This document shows, in pieces, positions 877 through 12,016 of a stretch of 45,989 nucleotides of DNA. The position numbers and the translations under genes are program-made. The stretch is from contig DAOWME010000001.1 in NCBI GenBank assembly GCA_030643245.1, positions 1-45,989 on the forward strand, written 5' to 3'. The notes under the pieces are model-generated. The model was given only the letters and a program-made list of their open reading frames with translations. It was not told the origin of the DNA and ran no database searches. Numbering within the stretch: the stretch's first letter is position 1; every line of letters starts with the position of its first letter. The DNA comes from Deltaproteobacteria bacterium. GTDB lineage: Bacteria; Desulfobacterota; UBA8473.

Positions 877-2145
877 ATGACGACAATCAAGAGAAGTTTT
901 GTTATATTTGCAGTCACCCTCAGCCTGAGCATGTTAGCTGCGACACAAGTGGCCATGAGCCAGGAAATCTCCAACTACGAGCTGATGAAGGAAGTAACGA
1001 GATTGAAAGTAAAGACCGATCAGCTTGAAGCTCAGATCAAAGGGGAGATGCCGGGAGAATCAGGGGCAGGGGAAAAAGAGCATTATCACAGCGTCAAAAG
1101 CCTGGCTGATAGAGTCCGCAGGATTGAGGGTCAAGTGAAAGAGGGTGTGCTGGGAAACTGGGCCGACAGAATAGAACTGAGCGGGCTCATAGAGATCGAA
1201 GTCGGTTATGAGGACCTCGATTTTGACGATTCCGCCCAGTCTGATAAGGAATCGAGCGACATCGTCCTTGCAACGGTTGAGTTGGGCGTTGATGTTGATA
1301 TTGCGAAGCATGTCAAGGGCCACGTTCTCTTTCTATGGGAAGAAGACGACACAGAACCGGTTGACGTGGATGAGGGGATTATCACCATAGATGGAGAGGA
1401 TGTGGCGCCCGTTTACCTCAATGCAGGGAAAATGTATGTGCCTTTCGGAAATTTTGAAAGCCACTTCATCAGCGACCCGTTGACACTGGAGCTGGGAGAG
1501 ACAAGGGAGAGTGCTCTTAATCTCGGATTTGCGAATGAAATGTTTGACGTCTGTGTCGGCGCTTTCAACGGCGACATCGATGAGACAGGAGAAGACAACC
1601 ATGTGGAGACCTATTTTGTCGGCGCAACATTCACCCTTCCGGAAGGGACAGCGTCAGACCTTGGGTTGACGGCCGGAGCGTCCTACATATCCAATATCGC
1701 CGACAGTGACAGCCTCCAGGACGAGGATGGTGTTGGCCAGAAGGATGAGTCTGGCGCTAAGATCCAAGAGATCAAAGACTACGTGGGTGGAGCGAGTCTT
1801 TTTGTGAGTCTTTCTTTAATGGATCAATTCTTCTTGGAGGCCGAATATCTTGGGGCCACCGAGAGTTTTGAGGCCGGTGAATTAGGATTTGACGAGGGCG
1901 AGTCATGCAGGCCGAGTGCCTGGAATATTGAGCTTGCCTATGCAGCCGCCGAGAACCTTGAGTTTGGGGTCAAGTATGAGGGCAGTGATGATTGCGGGGA
2001 TTTTCTTCCGGAAAGCCAGTATGGCGCTATCGTAAGCTACAGTCTTTTTGAGAACACCTCACTTGCGCTTGAATATCTCTATGGGGAATTCGAGAATGAC
2101 GATGAGAGGAACTTGATCACCTGCCAGCTCGGCATAGAATTCTGA
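877..2145 (+). CDS. Outer-membrane beta-barrel porin-like protein (LbtU-like siderophore/iron porin family suspected)
   Basis: 422 aa with a signal peptide (LSMLAATQVAMSQE) and an N-terminal coiled coil. Alternating acidic/aromatic beta-strand pattern and a C-terminal ...QLGIEF (terminal Phe typical of OMPs). AAAGGAG SD 6 nt upstream. Confidence 0.55.
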   Translation: MTTIKRSFVIFAVTLSLSMLAATQVAMSQEISNYELMKEVTRLKVKTDQLEAQIKGEMPGESGAGEKEHYHSVKSLADRVRRIEGQVKEGVLGNWADRIELSGLIEIEVGYEDLDFDDSAQSDKESSDIVLATVELGVDVDIAKHVKGHVLFLWEEDDTEPVDVDEGIITIDGEDVAPVYLNAGKMYVPFGNFESHFISDPLTLELGETRESALNLGFANEMFDVCVGAFNGDIDETGEDNHVETYFVGATFTLPEGTASDLGLTAGASYISNIADSDSLQDEDGVGQKDESGAKIQEIKDYVGGASLFVSLSLMDQFFLEAEYLGATESFEAGELGFDEGESCRPSAWNIELAYAAAENLEFGVKYEGSDDCGDFLPESQYGAIVSYSLFENTSLALEYLYGEFENDDERNLITCQLGIEF

Positions 2146-2153
2146 TCATTAAG

Positions 2154-2339
2154 ATGATTGCCGTTGTTTTATTGCCGGCTGCCGGGTATCTCTTTCACAA
2201 ATACTATTTGGCTTTCACAAAGAAGGAGACAGGGTGTGGCTGCGTATACTGTAGCACCAAGACCGGAGAGGGGAACTGCTCCTGCCTGTCACTTACTGTG
2301 AACAATGGAATGGAACAAATACCAGATGACAAAGAATGA
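2154..2339 (+). CDS. FeoB-associated Cys-rich small membrane protein (putative)
   Basis: 61 aa with one N-terminal TM helix followed by a Cys cluster (GCGCVYCS..GNCSC). This architecture matches the family named that way. No clear SD. Confidence 0.45.
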   Translation: MIAVVLLPAAGYLFHKYYLAFTKKETGCGCVYCSTKTGEGNCSCLSLTVNNGMEQIPDDKE

Positions 2340-2401
2340 ATGCAGGATGTGGTGGGCGCAGCCCACCCCACATACTTCGTCCTAAGGAGTGAGGTTATAT
2401 A

Positions 2402-2683
2402 ATGCCGAATCGTGATGGAACAGGGCCACCTGGAAAAGGAAAGGGCATGGTGGGACAGGGCATGGGTGTGTTAGAGGACCAGTGTCCTGAATGTGGGGAG
2501 GAAAGGCTTCATAATCTAGACTCCGGCCGGAGGGCAAAAGAGGTCGGCTGGGGAGTCGGAGCAGGCCCCGGGGGATTCTGCGTATGCCTAAAGTGCAACA
2601 AAGAAGTTAAGCATATTACGGGTACGCCGTGCAGTGAAATGAAATGCCCTGATTGCGGCGCGCCGATGGCACGGAAACTTTAA
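2402..2683 (+). CDS. DUF5320-like protein with two CxxC zinc-ribbon pairs
   Basis: N-terminus MPNRDGTGPPGKGKGMVGQGMG resembles the DUF5320 signature (MPxxDGTGPxGxGP). CPEC...CLKC and CPDC motifs. GGAG upstream. Confidence 0.5.
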   Translation: MPNRDGTGPPGKGKGMVGQGMGVLEDQCPECGEERLHNLDSGRRAKEVGWGVGAGPGGFCVCLKCNKEVKHITGTPCSEMKCPDCGAPMARKL

Positions 2684-2813
2684 GAAGAAAAGAGACCTTA
2701 TAGACTTCGGGAAAACCGGAAAGTTAGCTGGTTCAACCCTAAATAGCCCAGTATAAAGTTGTTCGCTGTGGCTAAATTAACTAATAAAATCAGCATGTTG
2801 TCTCAAAATAAAC

Positions 2814-2840
2814 TTGACAAAATATCGGGGGGGGTATACG
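2814..2840 (+). promoter_or_regulatory. Sigma70-like promoter candidate with a G8 tract in the spacer
   Basis: TTGACA (2814-2819), a 15-nt spacer containing gggggggg (2827-2834), then TATACG (2835-2840). Lies immediately upstream of the ATPase operon. Confidence 0.3.
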
Positions 2841-2841
2841 A

Positions 2842-3141
2842 ATGAGATGCAACGATTACCAAAGAATCTGTGGAGGGGATATTGGGAATGAGAAAGATTT
2901 CCCTTCGGGGTTTTTTCTTCCGCTGGCCTTTGTTCCTCGGGAGACAAAAAAGGTTAAAGTTGTTCGCCTTCTTGGTTCATCTGACACAGATGATTGGCCC
3001 TTGGGCCTTGAGGTGTCTATCGGGGAGGTGTTTCGCTTGTTACGACAGGCTGCAACCGGAGGATGGACCGTAGAGACAGGTGGTGCGAATTTTACTATTA
3101 GCGCCGAGTTGGCCAGGAAGTTGTTGGTGCAAACACTATGA
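2842..3141 (+). CDS. FeoA-like small protein (start uncertain)
   Basis: The C-terminal ~75 aa (VKVVRLLGSSD..LGLEVSIGEVFRLL....FTISAELARKLLV) follow the FeoA pattern. The stop overlaps the ATG of the next gene (ATGA). The annotated ATG sits right after the putative -10, so the true start may be downstream or non-canonical. Confidence 0.45.
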   Translation: MRCNDYQRICGGDIGNEKDFPSGFFLPLAFVPRETKKVKVVRLLGSSDTDDWPLGLEVSIGEVFRLLRQAATGGWTVETGGANFTISAELARKLLVQTL

Positions 3142-5390
3142 AAAAGGACATCCAAAAATCTATCAAAGTCCTCCATAGCATTCCAGGCAGGATGCGGCTG
3201 AAGGTGAAATCCGTCCGATCTTCCCATGAACGGGCTTATATCATTGAACACTTTGTATCGAAGCATTCTCCGGTTATAAAGGTGGAAGCACGCCCAATTA
3301 CCGGTAGCGTGATACTTTTTTATGATCCCGAGAGAGCGGACCCTGATGCTATAATCGACCTTCTCCGGAAGGCATTAACCGTAAGCATGGATACCCCCCT
3401 TTCACTTTCGTCATCAAGTAACCCGGCATGTGGCCTCGATTGCAAAGTTTGCCATCCAGTAACTTCATCCATAGAGAATAAATCTCTCTTGGGCAGACTG
3501 GTAGAGGTGCTGGCGCTCACCGCCTTTATGGTTTATTCTTTTATAAGAAACTTTATTTTCAAATCCCCCTTTTCCCAGGGGCCGTTCACCATTATGGCCG
3601 GTTTAGCTGTTGTGGCAGCCATCCCCCTCTTTCGCCATGCACTGGATGATTTGCAACGAGGGAAGAGCATGAGCCTGTTCCCATTTCTAGCCTCCACCTG
3701 TGTCCTCGCTCTCTTTCTGGGCGAGACAATGACAGCGCTGGAAGTGATCTGGATTTTGCGGGTGGGGATGCTCTTAGAGGATTATGTAGCTGAGCGGTCC
3801 CGTAAGGCCATAAGCGAAATCCTTCAGGTGGCCGCAAAGGACACTTATGTTCTAATAGATGGGATAGAGGTTGAGATACCCGTGGACGAGGTCAAGGAGG
3901 GAGATATATTGGCCGTCCATACCGGAGAAAAAATCCCGGTGGATGGTGTTGTGCTGAGAGGGGAGGCCATGGTGGATGAGGCCCATATCACAGGACGGGT
4001 CGAGCCTCAGATACGCAAGGCCAAAGATCGGGCCTTTGCAGGGACCATCGTCCAGGAGGGAGTAATATTCATCCGGGCGGAAAAGGTGGGAGATGATACC
4101 TATCTTTGCCGTATCCTTCATCTTGTTGAGGATTCGCTGGCCAATCGCGCGCCTGTAGAGAAACAGGCAGACATCCTGGCGGCCCGGCTTTTTCGACTCG
4201 GGGTCTTTGCTACGTTAGCTGTTCTCCTGTTAACAGCGGACCCTCTACGGGCCTTCACAGTTATGCTCGTCATGGCCTGCCCGTGCGCTACTGTGCTTGC
4301 CGCTTCAACTGCCGTGACCGCGGCTTTAGCCAATGCCGCGCGTAACCATATACTCGTGAAGGGAGGTCTTCACCTGGAGAGGGTGGGGAAGGCAGACTGT
4401 TTCTGCTTTGATAAGACAGGGACTATTACCGCAGAGATTCCCCAAGTGATAGAGGTAATCCCACGGGCGCCAAAACAGACCGAAGCCCATGTACTCGCGT
4501 TGGCTGCCGTAGCTGAGATGCACAATGAGCACCCTATGGCCAAGGCCGTGGTCAATGCCTCCAGCAGCTATGGTATTACACCGGAGCCCCACGCGGTCTG
4601 TGAATTTGTATTGGGACGGGGGGTTAAGGCCATGATGGATGGAAATATGATCCTTGTGGGGAACACCAGGTTCCTGGAGGAGGAAGGTGTCAGCACCGCA
4701 TATTATAAAGGCAAGGCTGATAAAAATATATCTGCCGGGCATACGGTCCTCTTTGTGGCCAGGAACAAGAAGCTTCAGGGGATGATAGTTGTGGCCAACA
4801 CAATAAGGCCCAATGCCAGGGCCGTGCTGGACTGGCTTAGAAAGGATGGCGTATCCGCCCTCTATCTTGGGACCGGGGATACGGAATCCGTGGCAAAGTT
4901 CATTTCCGATACCCTCGGTTTTGACGGCTATCGATCCGACCTGATGCCAGAAGATAAGTCCGAATATATTGAAAGGCTTGAGGATGACGGTATGTCTGTG
5001 GTTATGATCGGCGATGGCGTGAATGACGCATTGGCCCTCTCAAAGGCCGGCGTGGGCATTGCCATGGGAGCTGGTGGCGCTGAAGTGGCGATTGAGGCGT
5101 CGGACATTGCCCTGGTGGACAGCGAACTGGAACGAATTGTGAACCTGCGACAGCTCAGCCACAAGACGCTTGGGGTTATCGAAGAGAACTACTACCTCGC
5201 AGTCTCTACCAATATCATCGGTGTGTTAATGGGGGCGCTGGGATGGCTGACCCCTATAATGGCAGGGGGGCTTCATATTGTTCATACCCTTGGAATACTT
5301 ATGAACTCAAGTCGTCTCGTTGTATGGGAAGCCCCGGGATTAAAGGAGAAGGAATTAAGCGGAGTTAATCTCAATGATAAAGACGGATAA
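3138..5390 (+). CDS. Heavy-metal P1B-type ATPase A with an N-terminal IPGRxRLK (HMA_2-like) domain; actuator TGE replaced by TGR
   Basis: 750 aa with DKTGT, GDGVND, NEHP (HP motif) and TM CPC (MACPCAT). N-terminus has HSIPGRMRLKV. The A-domain reads ITGRVEP instead of TGE(S)xP (R codon 3996-3998). Confidence 0.9.
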   Translation: MKKDIQKSIKVLHSIPGRMRLKVKSVRSSHERAYIIEHFVSKHSPVIKVEARPITGSVILFYDPERADPDAIIDLLRKALTVSMDTPLSLSSSSNPACGLDCKVCHPVTSSIENKSLLGRLVEVLALTAFMVYSFIRNFIFKSPFSQGPFTIMAGLAVVAAIPLFRHALDDLQRGKSMSLFPFLASTCVLALFLGETMTALEVIWILRVGMLLEDYVAERSRKAISEILQVAAKDTYVLIDGIEVEIPVDEVKEGDILAVHTGEKIPVDGVVLRGEAMVDEAHITGRVEPQIRKAKDRAFAGTIVQEGVIFIRAEKVGDDTYLCRILHLVEDSLANRAPVEKQADILAARLFRLGVFATLAVLLLTADPLRAFTVMLVMACPCATVLAASTAVTAALANAARNHILVKGGLHLERVGKADCFCFDKTGTITAEIPQVIEVIPRAPKQTEAHVLALAAVAEMHNEHPMAKAVVNASSSYGITPEPHAVCEFVLGRGVKAMMDGNMILVGNTRFLEEEGVSTAYYKGKADKNISAGHTVLFVARNKKLQGMIVVANTIRPNARAVLDWLRKDGVSALYLGTGDTESVAKFISDTLGFDGYRSDLMPEDKSEYIERLEDDGMSVVMIGDGVNDALALSKAGVGIAMGAGGAEVAIEASDIALVDSELERIVNLRQLSHKTLGVIEENYYLAVSTNIIGVLMGALGWLTPIMAGGLHIVHTLGILMNSSRLVVWEAPGLKEKELSGVNLNDKDG

Positions 5391-5733
5391 AATAGATGAA
5401 GATAAATTGATCGAAGGTCTCCTTAGAATAGCGTCAAATATAAAGATTGCGCATCATATCCCCGGAAGGATCAGGCTAAAGGCCTCTCTTTCAGGACTTA
5501 ATAGTGTTCAGGAAATAGATATTAAAAAGATAGTGGGTTCTATCCCCGGAATTCTCAGTGTGCGAATCAATCCGTTTGGCATGTCGGCAATCATCGAATA
5601 CGATCAGGAGCAACTTCCATGTGACCTATGGGTGAGTCTTGGCGAGGTGGGTAAGAGGCCTGAAATTGCTGCCCGGGTTGTGGAGCGTCTGCAGACATTG
5701 TTTTCCGATAGAAGAAGATATGAACAGTTTTAA
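5374..5733 (+). CDS. Stand-alone IPGRxRLK (HMA_2-like) domain protein
   Basis: 119 aa. HHIPGRIRLKASL ... SIPGILSVRINPFGMSAIIEY matches the N-terminal domains of both flanking ATPases. Overlaps both neighbours (17 nt and 14 nt). Confidence 0.7.
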   Translation: MIKTDKIDEDKLIEGLLRIASNIKIAHHIPGRIRLKASLSGLNSVQEIDIKKIVGSIPGILSVRINPFGMSAIIEYDQEQLPCDLWVSLGEVGKRPEIAARVVERLQTLFSDRRRYEQF

Positions 5734-7969
5734 AATAGCCCACAGCCTTCCCTGGCGGACCAGATTGGTGGTGCCCTCTTTAGTTGGGGAAAGGGACGCT
5801 GCCCGGAAAGTAGCTGATGCCCTCTCTGAGATCCCCAGGATTTCCATGGCGGATGTACGTCCCGGAACCGGTTCCATTATCATTACCCATGAAGAAGGCT
5901 CCCTGAACCTTGAAGCTGTCAGGTCTGTGCTGGAAAGGGAAATACCTGTATACGAAAGGGGGAATACCGCTTTTGAATATAGCTGCTGCAGGGCGCCCCT
6001 GTCCCGGGCAGAAAACAGGCAGACACACGTGCCCGGATGGGTCCTTGCAATAACCGGCATCTACCTGGCTATCATGTGGTGTGGTCGCCTCATTTTTGGA
6101 AGATCGATGTCCCCTCGCGTCTTTTCTCTCCGAAGGATATTCGGTGTTCCTGCTTTAGTGGCCGTAGGGCTGAGTCTTCCCATCTTGAGAGATGGTCTTA
6201 GAGATTTGATGGAAAGATGGCGCCCCAATATGGATCTCTTAATCGTAAGTGCTTCATATCTCTCCATTTTAATGGGGGAGCCTGTTACAGCCATGGTAGT
6301 GCTCTGGCTGGTAAATCTATCCGAATGGTTGGAGGAAAAGACCCAGGAGAGAACCAGGAAAGCCATCAGGTCCATGCTTCGCCAGGAAGTGCGGGAAGCC
6401 TGGATAGTCAGAGACGGAGTGGAGCTTGAAATTAAAGTCTCAGAGCTGTCCGTGGGGGATATACTCAGCCTTAGATTCGGCAGCGCAGTCCCCGCGGATG
6501 GCACGGTTCAAGATGGCGAAGCCCTGGTGGATGAGTCCGCCATGACCGGCGAAGCCCTGCCGGTTTTCAAGACCTCAGGCGATCAAGTCCTTGCCGGAAC
6601 CACGGTGGAAATGGGGCATATCTTTTTACATGTCGACTCCGTAGGTGAAGAAACCCGCCTGGCAGCTATCATCCGTCTCATTGAAGAGGGAGAGGCCTCA
6701 AAGGCCCCGATCCAGCTTTCAGCCGAACGTTTCAGTGACGCAGTGGTTCCTGTCTCATTATTTCTTGCCCTTGCTGTCTTCTTTTTCACAAGGAACCTTC
6801 AACGGGCCATTGCAATGCTGATTATCGCGTGTCCTTGCGGCATTGGTCTTTCAACCCCAACGGCGCTGACTGCAGCCCTTGGTAATGCGGCCCGCAGGGG
6901 TGTTCTCATCAAAGGGGGACGAAACCTGGAGACCGCAGGCAAGGTAAATACCCTCGTCTTTGATAAGACCGGCACACTGACATCAGGCACCCCCAGGGTC
7001 TCACGAGTGATCACCCTGGACGATGATTACGAACCAATCCAAATCCTTCAACTGGCAGCCAGTTCCCAGATGCACTGGAAGCATCCCATGACCATTGCCG
7101 TTCTTGAGAAGGTCGGGGAAATAGAGATCGAAATCCCGCCCCATGAAGAGACTGAATTTATTATAGGACATGGGGTCCGGGCAAAGATCAACGGGAATGA
7201 AATTCTCGTGGGGAGCCACCACTTCATGGAGGATTATGAGGTGGACCATGAGGTCGGTCATGATGAGGAAAAGAGGATACTTGAAAAAGGAGAAAGTGTG
7301 CTCTTTGTGGCCTCCAACGGAAAGCTCATCGGACTTATAGGCGTGGAGGACCGGGTGAAGGATAATACAGCAATTGCTTTGCTGAGGCTGAAGGACCTCG
7401 GTGTCCGACATATTGTTATGCTCACCGGAGATCATAAGCGGAACGCAATGGCCATTGCCAGAGACCTGCCCATTGATGAGATCCAGTGGTCCCAGTCTCC
7501 CGAAGATAAGGCTGCGTGGATTGCACAATGGAAGGAACGCAACCCCGGCGACCTTGTAGCCATGGTTGGAGACGGAATAAATGATACCCCTGCCTTTTCC
7601 CGTGCAGATCTCAGTCTTGCCATGGGAGACACGGGTGCGGATGTGGCCATGGAACACGCGGCTATTGTGCTGCGCCGGGGTGATCTGGAGCTCGTAGCCG
7701 AGGCAATAGATCTCGGGCAGGCGACCCTTTCAACGATTTCTCAGAATTACAGTCTCTCCGTTGGCCTGAACCTGGCAGGCGTAGTACTGGCGGCTTTTGG
7801 TTGGCTTTCTCCTCTTGCAGGGGCATTTTTTCATAACCTTATCACCGTGGCAGTAGTAAGCAATTCAACAAAACTTCTCTTTTACAGTCCCGAATCTTCT
7901 CCCTCGGCCGGCGAAAATTCACAGGCCGTGGAAGAAAGTGAAGTGAGCATGGGATCAACCAAACCTTAA
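5720..7969 (+). CDS. Heavy-metal P1B-type ATPase B with an N-terminal HMA_2-like domain
   Basis: 750 aa from the internal ATG at 5720 (MNSFKIAHSLPWRTRLVV). Motifs: TGEALP, DKTGT, GDGIND, WKHP, TM CPC (IACPCGIGLSTP). The longer track ORF from 5639 is probably an upstream extension. Confidence 0.9.
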   Translation: MNSFKIAHSLPWRTRLVVPSLVGERDAARKVADALSEIPRISMADVRPGTGSIIITHEEGSLNLEAVRSVLEREIPVYERGNTAFEYSCCRAPLSRAENRQTHVPGWVLAITGIYLAIMWCGRLIFGRSMSPRVFSLRRIFGVPALVAVGLSLPILRDGLRDLMERWRPNMDLLIVSASYLSILMGEPVTAMVVLWLVNLSEWLEEKTQERTRKAIRSMLRQEVREAWIVRDGVELEIKVSELSVGDILSLRFGSAVPADGTVQDGEALVDESAMTGEALPVFKTSGDQVLAGTTVEMGHIFLHVDSVGEETRLAAIIRLIEEGEASKAPIQLSAERFSDAVVPVSLFLALAVFFFTRNLQRAIAMLIIACPCGIGLSTPTALTAALGNAARRGVLIKGGRNLETAGKVNTLVFDKTGTLTSGTPRVSRVITLDDDYEPIQILQLAASSQMHWKHPMTIAVLEKVGEIEIEIPPHEETEFIIGHGVRAKINGNEILVGSHHFMEDYEVDHEVGHDEEKRILEKGESVLFVASNGKLIGLIGVEDRVKDNTAIALLRLKDLGVRHIVMLTGDHKRNAMAIARDLPIDEIQWSQSPEDKAAWIAQWKERNPGDLVAMVGDGINDTPAFSRADLSLAMGDTGADVAMEHAAIVLRRGDLELVAEAIDLGQATLSTISQNYSLSVGLNLAGVVLAAFGWLSPLAGAFFHNLITVAVVSNSTKLLFYSPESSPSAGENSQAVEESEVSMGSTKP

Positions 7970-7979
7970 GGAGGTAAAT

Positions 7980-8954
7980 ATGGAAAAAAACAAGAATATT
8001 CGAGAGAAAACGTTGGGCCCGGGTGGAGCCCCAATGGCAGGACAAATGGGGGTGGTTGCCGGACCCGGCTCCGGGTCTGTGATGGAAGGCCATGGTGTGA
8101 GGCCTACACAGGTTGAAACTCCGGCGGCAGGCAACTGTGACCAGATGCATTCGGGAGCTGATCCCTGGCAGGGTAGCCAGCCCCAGGGACAGAATCCGGG
8201 CAACGGACAGACCGGGTTTTCAGGCGCGAATCCTGGTCAGCCGGGTCCCACTGGAATGCCCACAGGGCAAACCGGCTTTCAACCCGCAGGGAACGACCCC
8301 CAGGGACAGATTGGTAATATGGGAGGAGCATCTCCTCCCGGTTCTTTCCAGACCGGACCATCCCCTGGCCAGTTTCCAGGCATGGGTCAGGCAGACGCTC
8401 CCGGCATGAACCCCGGTCAGATGTCATTTTATCCGGGAGCTCATCCGGGGACACCCCCCCAGGCAAATGGGGGCATGCCGGCAGGAAGCGCTCATTCCAT
8501 GGGCCCATATCCAGGTTATCCGGGATCTGGTCAGATGGGGGTTCCCGGTGTGCATCCGGGACAGACCGGCTACCAGCCAGGTTGGGATCCTGGCGCCGGT
8601 GTTCAAGGACCGGGCGGTATGCCGGGGATGGAAACAAATCCTCACATGGGTTCATCTATGGAAGGACATGGCTCCAGTCACATGGGGGCGGACGCCCACC
8701 ATATTTATCATGACGAAAACCGTTTCGGCCAGGTTGCCGACATGGTGGGACGTTTCCTCAAGGGTGAGGCAAACACCGATGATATTGTCAACGGCCTTTT
8801 TAGTCTCAACTTTCGGGATGATCAGTTCTGGAAAGGGGCCATAGCCGGTGTTATTGTGGCCATGCTTCTCAGCAGCGACATGGTGAAACAGGGCCTGGCC
8901 AAGAGTTTTGGCGCTGTTTTCCAGAAGGGTAAGGATGAGAAAGAAGGCGCTTAA
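7980..8954 (+). CDS. Gly/Pro/Gln/Met-rich low-complexity protein with a C-terminal YtxH-like amphipathic/TM anchor
   Basis: 324 aa with a strong AAGGAGG SD. About 230 aa of PG/QG/MG repeats with His/Met patches (MEGHG twice). The C-terminus NFRDDQFWKGAIAGVIVAMLL.. is paralogous to ORF 9573-9929. Confidence 0.7.
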   Translation: MEKNKNIREKTLGPGGAPMAGQMGVVAGPGSGSVMEGHGVRPTQVETPAAGNCDQMHSGADPWQGSQPQGQNPGNGQTGFSGANPGQPGPTGMPTGQTGFQPAGNDPQGQIGNMGGASPPGSFQTGPSPGQFPGMGQADAPGMNPGQMSFYPGAHPGTPPQANGGMPAGSAHSMGPYPGYPGSGQMGVPGVHPGQTGYQPGWDPGAGVQGPGGMPGMETNPHMGSSMEGHGSSHMGADAHHIYHDENRFGQVADMVGRFLKGEANTDDIVNGLFSLNFRDDQFWKGAIAGVIVAMLLSSDMVKQGLAKSFGAVFQKGKDEKEGA

Positions 8955-8994
8955 TGACCGGGTCAACCGGCTATAAGCAGATAATAGGTAACCA

Positions 8995-9113
8995 TTCACC
9001 TCACTGCAAAGTCGCAAAGAGCGCAAAGGAATACATGAAGTGACAAAAGAAGAAGATAATCTTTCAAAGGAAATTTCTTTAAAACTTTGCGCTCTTTGCG
9101 CCTTTGCGGTGAA
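8995..9113. repeat. Long inverted repeat (~27-bp arms, ~55-nt loop) inside the operon
   Basis: cactgcaaagtcgcaaagagcgcaaag (about 9002-9028) versus ctttgcgctctttgcgcctttgcggtg (9085-9111), with 2 mismatches. Lies between the stop at 8954 and the start at 9142. Confidence 0.75.
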
Positions 9114-9141
9114 CTATTAGGATAATAGAAAGGAGTCAGAT

Positions 9142-9537
9142 ATGTCAAATCACCCTCACCCTCATAATTTACAAACAACCCCGGCGAGTTATCATGTTTA
9201 CAAATCTTCCACGAGACCTTATTCCGGCACGACGCTCTTGAACGCAGGGATCTTTGGAACCATTGTGGGAGGAACAGCCGCCCTCGGAATGAATCTACAC
9301 AAGGTCCGCGACAACGAGATGACTGCAAAAGAGGCCGTTATCGACAGCCTTGCTAAAGGCGCGGGTGCAGGCGTGGCTACAGCGGCTGCCACTGCTGTTG
9401 CATCCTCAGCAGGTGGCGGTGGCCTTCTCTCTCTGGCCTTTATGGTGGCAACTGCCACAGGAGTCGGTTATGTTCTGCATTCAGTGGGGAAATCGGTTTC
9501 TGAAAAGGTAGTCAGCACTTCGGAGAAATCATCATAG
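9142..9537 (+). CDS. MamC (Mms13/Mam12)-like two-TM membrane protein
   Basis: 131 aa with an AAGGAG SD. GIFGTIVGGTAALGMNLHKVRDNEMTAKEAVIDSLAKGAGAGVATAAATAVASSAGGGGLLSL aligns by eye with MamC [63 protein letters not shown] (recalled from memory). Confidence 0.6.
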   Translation: MSNHPHPHNLQTTPASYHVYKSSTRPYSGTTLLNAGIFGTIVGGTAALGMNLHKVRDNEMTAKEAVIDSLAKGAGAGVATAAATAVASSAGGGGLLSLAFMVATATGVGYVLHSVGKSVSEKVVSTSEKSS

Positions 9538-9572
9538 GGAAGTTTCAGTCTTTTAAAGAAAGGAGCAAAGAA

Positions 9573-9929
9573 ATGATTAAACACCATACACTTAATCCTT
9601 CTCCCGATATGTATCCCATGAACCAGCCCGGTCAAATGCTCAATGATCCCCGTTCGCATGACGCCAATCTACAGAGAACAGATTACACACAGATGAGCAC
9701 ACCTGCTGATACTTCCATCTTAGGCGTTAATTTCCATGACCAGCAGTTCTGGAAAGGGGCATTGCTGGGAGCGGCAGTTACACTCATTGTTACTAATGAA
9801 ACCGTGCAAAAGGGAATCATAAAGACCGTGGCGAAGCTCTATGGTTCAATGCAGAGCGGTGTGCAGGAGATAAAGGAGAAGTTTGAGGATGTTCAGGCGG
9901 AGCTGAAGCATAACGCCAAAGAGAAATAA
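9573..9929 (+). CDS. YtxH-like small membrane-associated protein, paralogue of the C-terminus of ORF 7980-8954
   Basis: 118 aa with an AAAGGAG SD. VNFHDQQFWKGALLGAAVTLIV..VQKGI matches LNFRDDQFWKGAIAGVIVAMLL..VKQGL. The N-terminus is rich in P/Q/M/N. Confidence 0.65.
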   Translation: MIKHHTLNPSPDMYPMNQPGQMLNDPRSHDANLQRTDYTQMSTPADTSILGVNFHDQQFWKGALLGAAVTLIVTNETVQKGIIKTVAKLYGSMQSGVQEIKEKFEDVQAELKHNAKEK

Positions 9930-9971
9930 CAAAAGAAGAGTTGAGGTTGCGACAAAGGTAGGGAAGATAAA

Positions 9972-10160
9972 GTGAATAAAAACACGATTAAGAGTGTGAC
10001 AAAGGCAGGAATGGTAGTCTCCTTGGCCGGTCTTGTGTTGACCGCTCTTGGAAAGGGCCGGCGATCCAAATTGCAACACACATGGGCCGGTATTTCACTT
10101 ATCGGCTTTTCCGTCTGGCATTACAACACATACCGGAGTCCCGGCCGGAGGCAGACATAA
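9972..10160 (+). CDS. Small two-TM membrane protein (hypothetical)
   Basis: 62 aa with a GTG start. Two hydrophobic helices (GMVVSLAGLVLTAL, WAGISLIGFSVW) separated by a basic loop KGRRSK. Weak SD. Confidence 0.4.
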   Translation: MNKNTIKSVTKAGMVVSLAGLVLTALGKGRRSKLQHTWAGISLIGFSVWHYNTYRSPGRRQT

Positions 10161-10206
10161 AACAACAATTTGAATGTATATGAAATCCCATGTGTAAAAG
10201 GTAAAA

Positions 10207-10291
10207 GGTATAGGGTGTAAGGATCAAGGATCAACATGCAAGCTGTATAGTATGGTCAATTCCTTAAGCCGTGTACCTTGAACCCTATGCC
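10207..10291. repeat. Hairpin of the GGCATAGGG..AAGG repeat family
   Basis: ggtatagggtgtaagg (10207-10222) pairs with ccttgaaccctatgcc (10276-10291) at 13/16, with a ~53-nt loop. Confidence 0.45.
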
Positions 10292-10330
10292 TCGTTTAGC
10301 TTTAATATACTATCTATGGGAGGTAATACA

Positions 10331-10507
10331 ATGGTACATTTACCTTTATTCTTCAGTCCCATCGGATGGATTGTGCTTGGCGCAGCAGGTTACCTATTAT
10401 ATCAGTCCGGTAAAAAAGCAGGGGGAAAAGAAAGAAACGAAAATATCCTGTCCGGTCCTTCAAAAGAAATACAGGAAAGAGAACCGTCCGAGCGAAAGGA
10501 GGTCTAA
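10331..10507 (+). CDS. Small single-TM glycine-zipper protein
   Basis: 58 aa from the ATG at 10331 (GGGAGG 7 nt upstream). Sequence MVHLPLFFSPIGWIVLGAAGYLLYQSGKK followed by a charged tail. Confidence 0.55.
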   Translation: MVHLPLFFSPIGWIVLGAAGYLLYQSGKKAGGKERNENILSGPSKEIQEREPSERKEV

Positions 10508-10508
10508 A

Positions 10509-10781
10509 ATGTCAAATCCGGCTTTTTGGGTTGGGATAAGAACCCCCTTAGGCCTCCTGGCCATTGGAGGTTTAGGGTATATTCTTTACAAGATCGGTGG
10601 TAAAAAAAAGAACAGGTCAACGGAAGAGGATGAAGAAAGCCTTTCGGACAAGGCTGTAAAAGGCGCCATTAAGACTGTCTGTAAGGCCAAACTAGGGGTG
10701 GAAAAAGCCCTGGAAGAAAAAAAGAAACGGTTTTCTGAGATGTGGTCTGAGGCCAAAGAGGATATGCGGGAAAAGGGATAA
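10509..10781 (+). CDS. Small single-TM glycine-zipper protein, paralogue of 10331-10507
   Basis: 90 aa from the ATG at 10509 (AAGGAGG upstream). LGLLAIGGLGYILYKIGGKKK followed by a Lys/Glu-rich helical tail. Shares a G-x-x-GY(L/I)LY motif with the upstream gene. Confidence 0.6.
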   Translation: MSNPAFWVGIRTPLGLLAIGGLGYILYKIGGKKKNRSTEEDEESLSDKAVKGAIKTVCKAKLGVEKALEEKKKRFSEMWSEAKEDMREKG

Positions 10782-10918: not shown

Positions 10919-11083
10919 TTAGGGACGAGGCCGAAATAACTTCCTCAAGTTGGCGCTCAGATTTAGGTCAGATTTTTTCGATCTGAAAATACAAAACCAC
11001 AGGAATAGTCTTTCCTATTTCGAGGATTTTGTGTTTGAAGATCGGGCAAAGATGGCCTGAAGATAAGAAACTTCGTGGGGAAC
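10919..11083 (+). repeat. Intergenic hairpin repeat (MITE/ERIC-like), copy 1, right end degenerate
   Basis: ttagggacgaggccgaaataacttcctcaagttggcgctcagatttaggtcag... matches the other copies up to gatggcctgaagat, then diverges. Confidence 0.85.
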
Positions 11084-11175: not shown

Positions 11176-11252
11176 TGGTCGGGACGACTGGATTTGAACC
11201 AGCGACCCCCTGAACCCCATTCAGGTGCGCTACCAGGCTGCGCCACGTCCCG
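11176..11252 (-). tRNA. tRNA-Pro (anticodon GGG)
   Basis: 77-nt cloverleaf read by eye: CGGGACG acceptor, GCGC D-stem, CCTGA/ATGGGGT/TCAGG anticodon arm, GCTGG-TTCAAAT-CCAGT T-arm, encoded CCA. Confidence 0.9.
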
Positions 11253-11268: not shown

Positions 11269-11652
11269 TTACTCCAGAATGTCTCTTATTACCTTCAACT
11301 CGTTCTTTATGTCATCCAACAGTTCCCTATATCCCTCTCCAGAAAGAGTAAATTTTGCCTCTCTATCCTCCTGGGAATTGGACTTCCTGAGCTTCTTCTT
11401 GGCCCCAGCTATGGTAAATTTCTCATTGTAAAGCAGGTTTTTTATCTCTAATATTGATTCCAGGTCTTTTCGTATGTAAAGTCTCTGCCTGGACTTGGTG
11501 CGAGAAGGCTTGACCAGGTTAAATTCGGACTCCCAATACCTCAAGACGTATGGCTCTACACCAACAATCTCGCTTACTTCCCCTATCTTGAAATATAGTT
11601 TATCAGGTATGCCTAAACCCCTTTTGTCTGCCCCTTGCTCTTTATCTTTCAT
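11269..11652 (-). CDS. MerR-family transcriptional regulator
   Basis: From the internal ATG at 11652 (MKDKEQG..). [34 protein letters not shown] is a MerR HTH. It occupies the usual position after ihfA in this conserved block. Confidence 0.8.
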
Positions 11653-11829
11653 TTTATTTCTTTGAACTGTAAAAGTCAATGTCAATAAGACGGCGGCAGC
11701 AATTCTAATTAGTTTCCATCCAGTAATGTCACTTTTTCGCAACCTCCTGCGTGAGCCTGCGGGTTTGTTTGTGCAGCGTACGCGTCTTAACAGAACAGGC
11801 AACGAAAAAATATGTCGTTAATGAAGCGG

Positions 11830-12016
11830 TTAGGGTCTGTCATGGAATAAGTGTTGCATATGGGCGCTCAGATTTAGGTCAGATTTGTACGATCCGAAAA
11901 TGCAATACCGGAGGAATAGTTGAACCTATTTCGAGGATTTTGTGTTTGAGGATCGTGCAAAGATGGCCTGAAGATGAGATGCACAGATGTGATACTTATT
12001 CCATGACAGACCCTAA
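11830..12016 (+). repeat. Intergenic hairpin repeat, copy 2 (variant termini)
   Basis: The core matches the family. The terminal arms ttagggtctgtcatggaataagt / acttattccatgacagaccctaa are a perfect 23-bp inverted repeat that differs in sequence from other copies. Confidence 0.9.

Follow-up and report, generated by a model that had tools for sequence, protein, structure and literature searches.

A MamC-family membrane protein encoded in a ferrosome-like gene cluster of a Desulfobacterota bacterium

Bacteria are known to build two kinds of iron organelle bounded by lipid, ferrosomes and magnetosomes, which have so far been regarded as genetically separate. The magnetosome protein MamC (Mms13; NF038051, PF26373) of magnetotactic Pseudomonadota, which is abundant and faces the magnetite, carries a loop in which Glu66 and Asp70 are claimed to template magnetite (PMC6584501). 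For ferrosomes, the fez gene cluster tables of Grant et al. (bioRxiv 10.1101/2020.01.10.902569) include a hypothetical "Group 4-6" protein of 117 to 146 amino acids, encoded exactly between the Group 2-3 and Group 2-1 genes. This protein counts 132 amino acids in Desulfobacter vibrioformis (Q366DRAFT_02522) and 117 in Desulfuromonas thiophila (Ga0056074_10192), and Desulfocapsa and Desulfoglaeba each carry one too (Grant et al., bioRxiv 10.1101/2020.01.10.902569). Here, we analyze an open reading frame (ORF) at positions 9142 to 9537 of contig DAOWME010000001.1 from a Deltaproteobacteria bacterium, a complete metagenome contig of 45,989 bp (the window). Its product is a new member of this catalogued, uncharacterized fez protein group and of the Pfam MamC family.

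The ORF starts with an ATG, six bases downstream of AAAGGAG, a good ribosome-binding site. A preliminary description of this DNA had attributed the MamC architecture to the 131-amino-acid product, and this is borne out by a gapless alignment to MamC over helix 1, the loop and the second hydrophobic region. A polar loop of about 20 residues separates the two Gly/Ala-rich parts, as follows.

9142 to 9537 (+): MamC-family membrane protein, 131 amino acids, in the fez "Group 4-6" (FezF-like) position; assigned by NCBIfam MamC, PF26373, hhalign and synteny
9232 to 9297 (+): first Gly/Ala-zipper hydrophobic helix, approximately residues 31 to 52, LLNAGIFGTIVGGTAALGMNLH; aligns ungapped with the first transmembrane segment (TM) of MamC
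9298 to 9357 (+): polar connecting loop, residues 53 to 72, containing E64 and D68; aligns with the Glu66/Asp70 loop of MamC
9358 to 9480 (+): second hydrophobic region, residues 73 to 113, GAGAGVATAAATAVASSAGGGGLLSLAFMVATATGVGY

In the superfamily alignment, G39 of helix 1 is invariant and G36, G43, A47 and N51 are nearly so, while the second hydrophobic region holds the invariant G77 and A79 and the nearly invariant Y110. The ORF product thus has in common with MamC not only its size (about 120 to 130 amino acids) but also residues G36, G39, G43, N51, G77, A79 and Y110.

The NCBIfam MamC model matches the protein with an E value of 1.8e-14 and 53.8 bits, aligning residues 27 to 111 to profile positions 4 to 88 of 97. 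Precomputed public Pfam annotation places PF26373 ("MamC") on the protein, across helix 1, loop and helix 2, and on 77 of the 79 homologues found in the database search. One sample containing the gene (JGI 3300008410) features in a study of seep sediments from the Gulf of Mexico, and the relatives point to Desulfobacterota. Named MamC proteins from Magnetospirillum, Magnetococcus marinus MC-1, Magnetofaba, Magnetovibrio and others were used for direct comparison. In BLASTP with compositional adjustment, the polar loop matches MC-1 MamC significantly, with 47% identity over 36 amino acids (E value of 6e-7), and Magnetospirillum MamC is 48% identical over 54 amino acids. When 25 relatives of the ORF product were aligned with 19 named MamC proteins by hhalign, a probability of 99.1% and an E value of 1.1e-18 were obtained, over 85 ungapped columns with 32% identity. 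The preliminary description had put the identity at 35 to 40% by eye; the homology is upheld, but the figure is slightly high, as identity over the whole alignment amounts to 24 to 35% and the values of 47 to 48% apply to the local BLAST segments only.

On a profile built from named MamC proteins only, the ORF product scores 56.7 bits. Among 2000 shuffles of its core, the highest score is 9.8 bits; 2000 further shuffles, in which each segment kept its composition, reach 18.2 bits at most. Composition alone is therefore excluded, and the resemblance to MamC is true homology. A local Pfam scan gave no match for the ORF, because that copy of Pfam lacks the PF26373 model; this miss is not evidence against homology.

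The protein and its relatives nevertheless form a clade of their own, apart from MamC. The NF038051 equivalog model has a cut-off of 100 bits, which the ORF product (53.8 bits) does not reach, in contrast to the true MamC proteins P0152 (133.7 bits) and P0100 (142.1 bits). The clade differs from MamC in some 30 additional N-terminal residues, rich in His, Pro, Tyr and Thr, in the loop (NLHKVq..MT..A..DSLAKGAGAG against the KN...DTGKE..GAG type) and in the C-terminal part, where ATATGVGY.LNS.GKS stands in place of KYAWDRGVE and an acidic tail. The genomic setting differs as well: the ORF lies in a fez cluster, whereas MamC is encoded in a mamGFDC/mamAB setting and the true mamC of MC-1 adjoins a gene for a MamE-like protease. 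As the preliminary description had stated, the window holds no mam genes: family searches detected no mam or mad families in the window or in 10 related loci. The presumed mineral partner of the ORF product would be iron phosphate and not magnetite. Taken together, the ORF encodes a MamC superfamily member but is not a bona fide mamC. It is no orphan mamC either, since it belongs to a distinct fez-cluster clade found with FezH/FezB-type P1B ATPases.

The loop of the ORF product reads ...KEAVIDSLAK..., with E64 encoded by GAG at 9331 to 9333 and D68 by GAC at 9343 to 9345. The Glu-x3-Asp spacing of MamC, which had been singled out in the preliminary description, is thus present: the aligned MamC loops read EAAID in Magnetospirillum and EAVID in MC-1, the latter identical to the ORF. 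Across the clade, position 64 is Glu in 58 of 128 members and Gln in 55, and position 68 is Asp in 99 of 128 (77%) and Asn in 19. The E...D pair is kept by 44 of the 128 clade members, compared to 63 of 118 MamC proteins, and both positions are acidic in 99 of those 118. The E-x3-D pair is present in the ORF product but is not a signature of its clade.

The genes around the ORF form a same-strand block (877 to 10781) that matches, in predicted gene content, the ferrosome (fez) clusters catalogued by Grant et al. The other genes of the block are listed below.

877 to 2145 (+): LbtU-family siderophore porin, opening the block (NCBIfam NF033652, E value of 1.9e-81, 274 bits against a cut-off of 90)
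2402 to 2683 (+): small zinc-ribbon protein, 93 amino acids (weak zinc-ribbon Pfam/NCBIfam matches only)
2842 to 3141 (+): FeoA-like small protein, 99 amino acids, overlapping the next gene by 4 nucleotides (Pfam FeoA, E value of 0.014, below cut-off)
3138 to 5390 (+): FezH-type P1B ATPase, 750 amino acids (HMA_2, E1-E2 ATPase and Hydrolase domains)
5374 to 5733 (+): small R-rich HMA2 protein, 119 amino acids, of the Grant "Group 3-1" type (Pfam HMA_2, E value of 1.6e-8)
5720 to 7969 (+): second Fez-like P1B ATPase, of a hybrid type; probable start at ATG 5720
7980 to 8954 (+): Pro/Gly/Gln-rich protein, 324 amino acids, with a C-terminal GxxxG helix, of the Grant "Group 2-3" type; motif QFWKGAIAGVIVAM
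9573 to 9929 (+): GxxxG/YtxH-like protein, 118 amino acids, of the Grant "Group 2-1" type; motif QFWKGALLGAAVTL; weak YtxH and DUF5132 matches
9972 to 10160 (+): small conserved membrane ORF, 62 amino acids, with a GTG start; 71% identical to a Desulfobacterales ORF (L010:1818-2048, E value of 1e-31)
10331 to 10507 (+): small membrane protein, 58 amino acids (GWIVLGAAGYLLYQSGKK); present in public gene calls, with a homologue at the same position in L010
10509 to 10781 (+): small membrane protein, 90 amino acids (LLAIGGLGYILYKIGGKKK), a paralogue-like neighbor; present in public gene calls, with a G..LG..GY.LY motif in common with the 58-amino-acid ORF

As the preliminary description had noted, the MamC-like gene lies beside P1B ATPases, both of them a short way upstream; this combination had been called unexpected, but it is the ATPases beside the gene that identify the cluster as being of the fez type. 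The ATPase at 3138 to 5390 carries ACPCATV in TM4, HIVHT in TM6 and the R-rich motif HSIPGRMRLKVK, in agreement with the FezH table of Grant et al. (bioRxiv 10.1101/2020.01.10.902569), which gives ACPCATV / HI.H[TS] / H.IPGR.R. It has the R-rich N-terminus, ACPCAT TM4 and HI.H[TS] TM6 that mark FezH, and is 53 to 61% identical to the upstream ATPase of the related loci L005 and L007. The motifs IKIAHHIPGRIRLKAS and IAHHIPGRIRLK of the small HMA2 protein resemble Group 3-1 motifs such as EIAHHLPGRIRLKLK, which places the protein in that group.

The second ATPase is of a different make. It combines an R-rich HMA2 N-terminus, with the motif FKIAHSLPWRTRLVVP (H.L.WRTR), with IIACPCG in TM4 and FFHNLIT in TM6. 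HNxxT in TM6 is thus common to this protein and FezB, but CPC replaces the D[YF]SCA of FezB; identity is approximately 36% to the FezB type and 33 to 35% to the FezH type. The same hybrid type follows FezH in a Desulfomonilaceae locus (L019:4374-6698), and neither locus has a FezB with D[YF]SCA. This hybrid ATPase may stand in for FezB and have another kind of metal site. Its start in public gene calls, at 5765, is too late; the ATG at 5720 brings back the R-rich motif.

The MamC-like ORF is flanked on both sides by genes with a QFWKGA... motif, belonging to Groups 2-3 and 2-1 and carrying the GxxxG pattern of Group 2. The motif QFWKGAIAGVIVAM is comparable to QFWKGAVVGAAAAV of D. vibrioformis Q366DRAFT_02521 (327 amino acids), and QFWKGALLGAAVTL is comparable to the Group 2-1 motifs QFWKGAVLGAAVTL and TFWKGAILGAGVAL. 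L010 has a counterpart of the 7980 to 8954 gene at the same position. An assignment of these FWKG... neighbors to Mad-type magnetosome proteins was considered and rejected, as they match the GxxxG groups of Grant et al. Farther downstream, the 62-amino-acid ORF is missing from public gene calls; with two hydrophobic segments and HTWAG...WHYN, it probably does encode a small membrane protein belonging to the cluster.

In a longer copy of the contig in ENA, genes for a DtxR-like repressor, FeoA, FeoAB and DUF4198 are found upstream of the porin. Iron-homeostasis genes of the kinds considered (FeoA/B, Fur/DtxR and receptors) are thus associated with the cluster, the FeoA-like ORF within it being a weak match (E value of 0.014). 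FeoA-domain proteins are among the fez-cluster components described by Grant et al. (bioRxiv 10.1101/2020.01.10.902569). The segment of the ENA copy lying 5' of the window (L016:316-8815) holds an iron-uptake block of feoA-feoB, a 108-amino-acid ORF, DUF4198, an ABC ATPase, DUF4857, RelB, the DtxR-like repressor and a second FeoA, and the feoAB/DUF4198 set also occurs near the cluster in Geopsychrobacteraceae loci. From 12 to 46 kb, the window holds housekeeping genes: pheST, HU, infC, thrS, a CsgG/FlgT-like lipoprotein cluster, hflX, hdrA/mvhD-like genes, ligA and methylmalonyl-CoA mutase.

Gene order is kept in all 10 related loci examined, with the MamC-like gene always between two GxxxG genes in a fez cluster. 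The same setting is seen on Geopsychrobacteraceae chromosomes (L004-L006, L011), in "Ca. Magnetomoraceae" gMMP-15 (L007-L009), in a Desulfobacterales metagenome-assembled genome (MAG; L010), on a 2.1-Mb contig (L018), in Desulfomonilaceae (L019), in two further MAGs (L020, L021) and in a Seleniivibrio-type member of the Deferribacterota (L022). A canonical FezB, recognized by the motifs VD[FY]SC[AV] and HNxxT, is present in L005, L007, L011, L018 and L020. The GxxxG genes are the fixed neighbors, and the position of the ATPases differs between loci. In two natural fusions from metagenome contigs, P0301 (252 amino acids) and P0355 (285 amino acids), a MamC-like N-terminus is joined through a Pro/Gln-rich linker to a Group 2-1 GxxxG/YtxH-like domain, an arrangement that mirrors the order of the two unfused genes in the window. 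The MamC-like part is 38% identical to the window protein, and the Group 2-1 part is 48% identical to the 118-amino-acid protein. A profile scan of genome contigs with the family alignment, which saturated on low-complexity GAG[AT]G[VI]A... sequence, yielded two loci only, and a homology search with the merged alignment listed close members only.

By position and size, the window protein corresponds to Group 4-6: both are encoded between Group 2-3 and Group 2-1 GxxxG genes next to FezH, in the same phylum, and measure 117 to 146 amino acids. The window cluster differs in having the CPC/HNLIT ATPase where most clusters have FezB. In Shewanella putrefaciens, the same position in the fez cluster is held by FezF, which by elimination is Sputcn32_3195 of subgroup 4-2.

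The relation to MamC extends to other parts of Group 4. With FezB as bait, fez clusters of other phyla were retrieved from plasmid records of Azospirillum, Arcobacter, Cereibacter and Vibrio. In all four, the best ORF on the merged (MamC plus clade) or clade profile is the one just 5' of the Group 2-1/YtxH gene; Vibrio and Arcobacter alone give this result on the MamC-only profile. The Vibrio protein reaches 96.2% in hhalign against named MamC and an E value of 8.8e-9 with the NCBIfam MamC model, and the Arcobacter protein reaches 9.4e-7 with the latter. The Azospirillum (64.8% in hhalign, E value of 2.6e-6) and Cereibacter (30%, E value of 2e-7) members are weak, both E values referring to a 909-ORF database. 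The Group 4-1 protein of Seleniivibrio woodruffii (WP_303850211.1) matches PF26373 and reaches 62 bits with the MamC-only profile. Its surroundings resemble the window, with an ATPase, HMA2, a protein of about 170 amino acids, the MamC-like protein, proteins of about 105 and 65 amino acids, an ATPase and FeoA. Group 4-1-like proteins of Desulfovibrionales and Deferribacterota are related to the window clade with a profile-profile E value of 1.8e-37. With KE..G.G.AT and KYLWD, they are nearer to true MamC than the window clade is (hhalign score of 163 versus 125).

When 1.84 billion representatives were searched exhaustively with HMMER, 334 family members (clusters at 50% identity) were obtained at E values up to 1e-3, many of which fall in neither clade. 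The PF26373-type family includes fez-cluster members from Desulfobacterota, Deferribacterota, Campylobacterota and Gammaproteobacteria, contrary to the preliminary view that MamC is restricted to magnetotactic Alphaproteobacteria and their relatives. Group 4 of Grant et al. thus appears to correspond largely to the MamC superfamily, with the inclusion of subgroups 4-2 and 4-9 resting on weak scores and on Grant's own grouping.

The predicted family tie between fez Group 4 and MamC, and thereby between ferrosomes and magnetosomes, is apparently unreported. No mention of it was found in the literature searched, which included the supplement of the Grant preprint but not the Nature version, and no report on the function of any Group 4 protein was found in the same literature. 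If true, the shared family would be the first sequence-level bridge between the two organelles and would suggest where MamC came from. It would also provide a candidate for the contact between the ferrosome membrane and its iron-phosphate granule, turning the uncharacterized FezF/Group 4 proteins into testable targets. It further follows that "MamC" database matches (PF26373 and some GenBank names) are no evidence of magnetotaxis in metagenome surveys, where labels of this kind on fez proteins could inflate the counts of magnetotactic bacteria. P0009 (MBW2707995.1), a fez-clade member from a Deltaproteobacteria MAG encoded at a fez-type locus (L021), bears the GenBank name "magnetosome protein MamC"; Methylocystis bryophila WP_158658879.1 (P0360) is listed with it in this naming observation.

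A second link between the two systems is possible, though unconfirmed. The gene downstream of mamC in MC-1 (L023:6489-7646) encodes a DUF2202 (ferritin-like) domain, and DUF2202 is a conserved fez-cluster component (Grant et al., bioRxiv 10.1101/2020.01.10.902569). Pairwise BLAST between the MC-1 protein and the DUF2202 protein of the Arcobacter fez cluster detected no significant similarity.

In our assessment, the ORF product is probably the Desulfobacterota Group 4-6 two-helix membrane protein of a ferrosome-like compartment, where it works with the GxxxG proteins; the natural fusions of the two support this partnership. Following this explanation, the protein would be made together with the Fez-type P1B ATPases, the R-rich HMA2 proteins and the GxxxG membrane proteins from a presumably shared transcript. 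The ATPases are thought to move Fe2+ into a lipid-bounded compartment. The ORF product would insert into the membrane of that compartment as a hairpin, its Gly/Ala-zipper helices packing against the neighboring GxxxG proteins. By analogy with MamC, the polar loop would face the lumen, where the conserved Asp68 would act with Glu/Gln64 and Thr61 to bind Fe2+ or to anchor the iron-phosphate (Fe-P-O) granule.

A broader proposal, to which we give even chances, holds that MamC and Group 4/FezF are one family and that magnetosomes and ferrosomes share a mineral- or membrane-organizing hairpin protein. Recruitment would then probably have led from a ferrosome-type ancestor to MamC, or in the opposite direction, and the window would represent a FezB-less fez variant with a new CPC/HNxxT ATPase in the place of FezB.

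Several points weigh against these readings. Canonical FezB (P1B-6; D[YF]SCA in TM4 and HNxxT in TM6) is absent from the 46-kb contig and the 9 kb upstream of it, which makes the window a predicted fez variant that lacks the P1B-6 signature. Equivalence with Group 4-6 follows from position, size and taxon (synteny), not from listed sequences, and subgroup 4-2, which holds the S. putrefaciens FezF, is tied only weakly to MamC (the Azospirillum member cited above). Because 43% of the clade has Gln in place of Glu64, the case for a strict templating role of E-x3-D is weaker. The topology is a prediction: an AlphaFold2 model from a 44-sequence alignment has three helices, with the second hydrophobic region divided in two at GGGG, at low confidence (predicted local distance difference test [pLDDT] of 56.5; predicted template modeling score [pTM] of 0.25), and a sequence search of the PDB returned chance matches only (E values above 0.2). 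No experiment was found that places a Group 4/FezF protein on ferrosomes. Moreover, Desulfovibrio magneticus forms ferrosomes with fezABC alone, and the ferrosome proteome is enriched for FezA, FezB and FezC only (Grant et al., bioRxiv 10.1101/2020.01.10.902569), so a protein of the ORF type is not universally required.

Of the alternatives to a Group 4-6 compartment protein, the one that survives best, although unlikely, is that the ORF encodes a small regulatory or stabilizing subunit of the adjacent P1B ATPases, with no role at an organelle membrane or mineral. In every locus examined, P1B ATPase genes are indeed its neighbors, and as a small protein with two hydrophobic helices it resembles the small membrane proteins that accompany other P-type ATPases. 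However, the fusions observed join it to a GxxxG protein and not to an ATPase, and it is the two GxxxG genes that stay beside it while the ATPases change position. MamC, in addition, acts in magnetosomes from the mamGFDC operon with no known P1B ATPase partner.

It is very unlikely that the cluster is instead a metal-efflux or detoxification system in which a generic glycine-zipper membrane protein has been co-opted. The missing P1B-6 ATPase, which defines fez clusters, would be explained in this way, as would the CPC of both ATPases, typical of Cu/Zn/Cd pumps, and a MerR-family regulator downstream on the opposite strand. Yet all other accessory genes are fez specific (FezH motifs, R-rich HMA2 protein, Group 2-1 and 2-3 GxxxG proteins), the genes around the cluster relate to iron (DtxR-like repressor, FeoA, FeoAB and LbtU porin) rather than to copper or zinc, and orthologous clusters do carry FezB.

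We regard as highly improbable that the ORF is the genuine mamC of a magnetotactic member of the Desulfobacterota, with its magnetosome island on another contig and its product shaping magnetite or greigite in the magnetosome membrane. This idea can draw on the real homology to MamC, the EAVID loop of M. marinus MC-1, a close relative from the magnetotactic "Ca. Magnetomoraceae" gMMP-15 and the GenBank name of one clade member, and the window is one whole contig, so the remaining genome lies outside its view. Against it stand the score of 53.8 bits, far from the cut-off of 100 and the 134 to 142 bits of true MamC, and the separate clade with its N-terminal extension and ATATGVGY replacing KYAWDRG. 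The gMMP-15 copy too sits in a fez cluster among housekeeping genes, unlike the true mamC of MC-1 beside its MamE-like protease gene. Genomes of Geopsychrobacteraceae and Desulfuromonas furthermore contain clade members, as do, judged by position, four cultured species with no known magnetotaxis. Finally, that the MamC resemblance is a composition artefact of Gly/Ala-rich transmembrane helices was tested and rejected as next to impossible: the protein is rich in G, A, T and V, with an HMMER bias term of approximately 10 to 12 bits and no match in the local Pfam copy, but that miss is explained by the absent model, segment-preserving shuffles stay at or below 18.2 bits against 56.7, the BLAST match falls in the polar loop, and the 85 ungapped columns include the conserved polar residues N51, T61, D68 and Y110.

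Two noncoding features accompany the cluster, the first of them in the 187-nucleotide spacer (8955 to 9141) directly 5' of the MamC-like gene.

9001 to 9112 (+): long hairpin with 28-nucleotide arms (9001 to 9028 and 9085 to 9112), 93% complementary, around a 56-nucleotide loop

The predicted RNA fold of the spacer has a free energy of -64.5 kcal/mol (z = -7.3). The hairpin is not followed by a T-run, and no other copy of its motif occurs in the window. Related loci have no such hairpin, and their spacers measure 26 to 62 nucleotides as opposed to 187 in the window. A role in mRNA processing or stability is possible, as is an origin as an inserted repeat. Beyond the block, a direct repeat of approximately 125 to 134 nucleotides with 84% identity (10935 to 11068 and 11846 to 11979), with inverted arms at 11830 to 11865 and 11981 to 12016, brackets a tRNA-Pro(GGG) gene (11176 to 11252, reverse strand) and the MerR-family gene (11269 to 11802, reverse strand). 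The direct repeat has no Rfam match and may be a small mobile or regulatory repeat.

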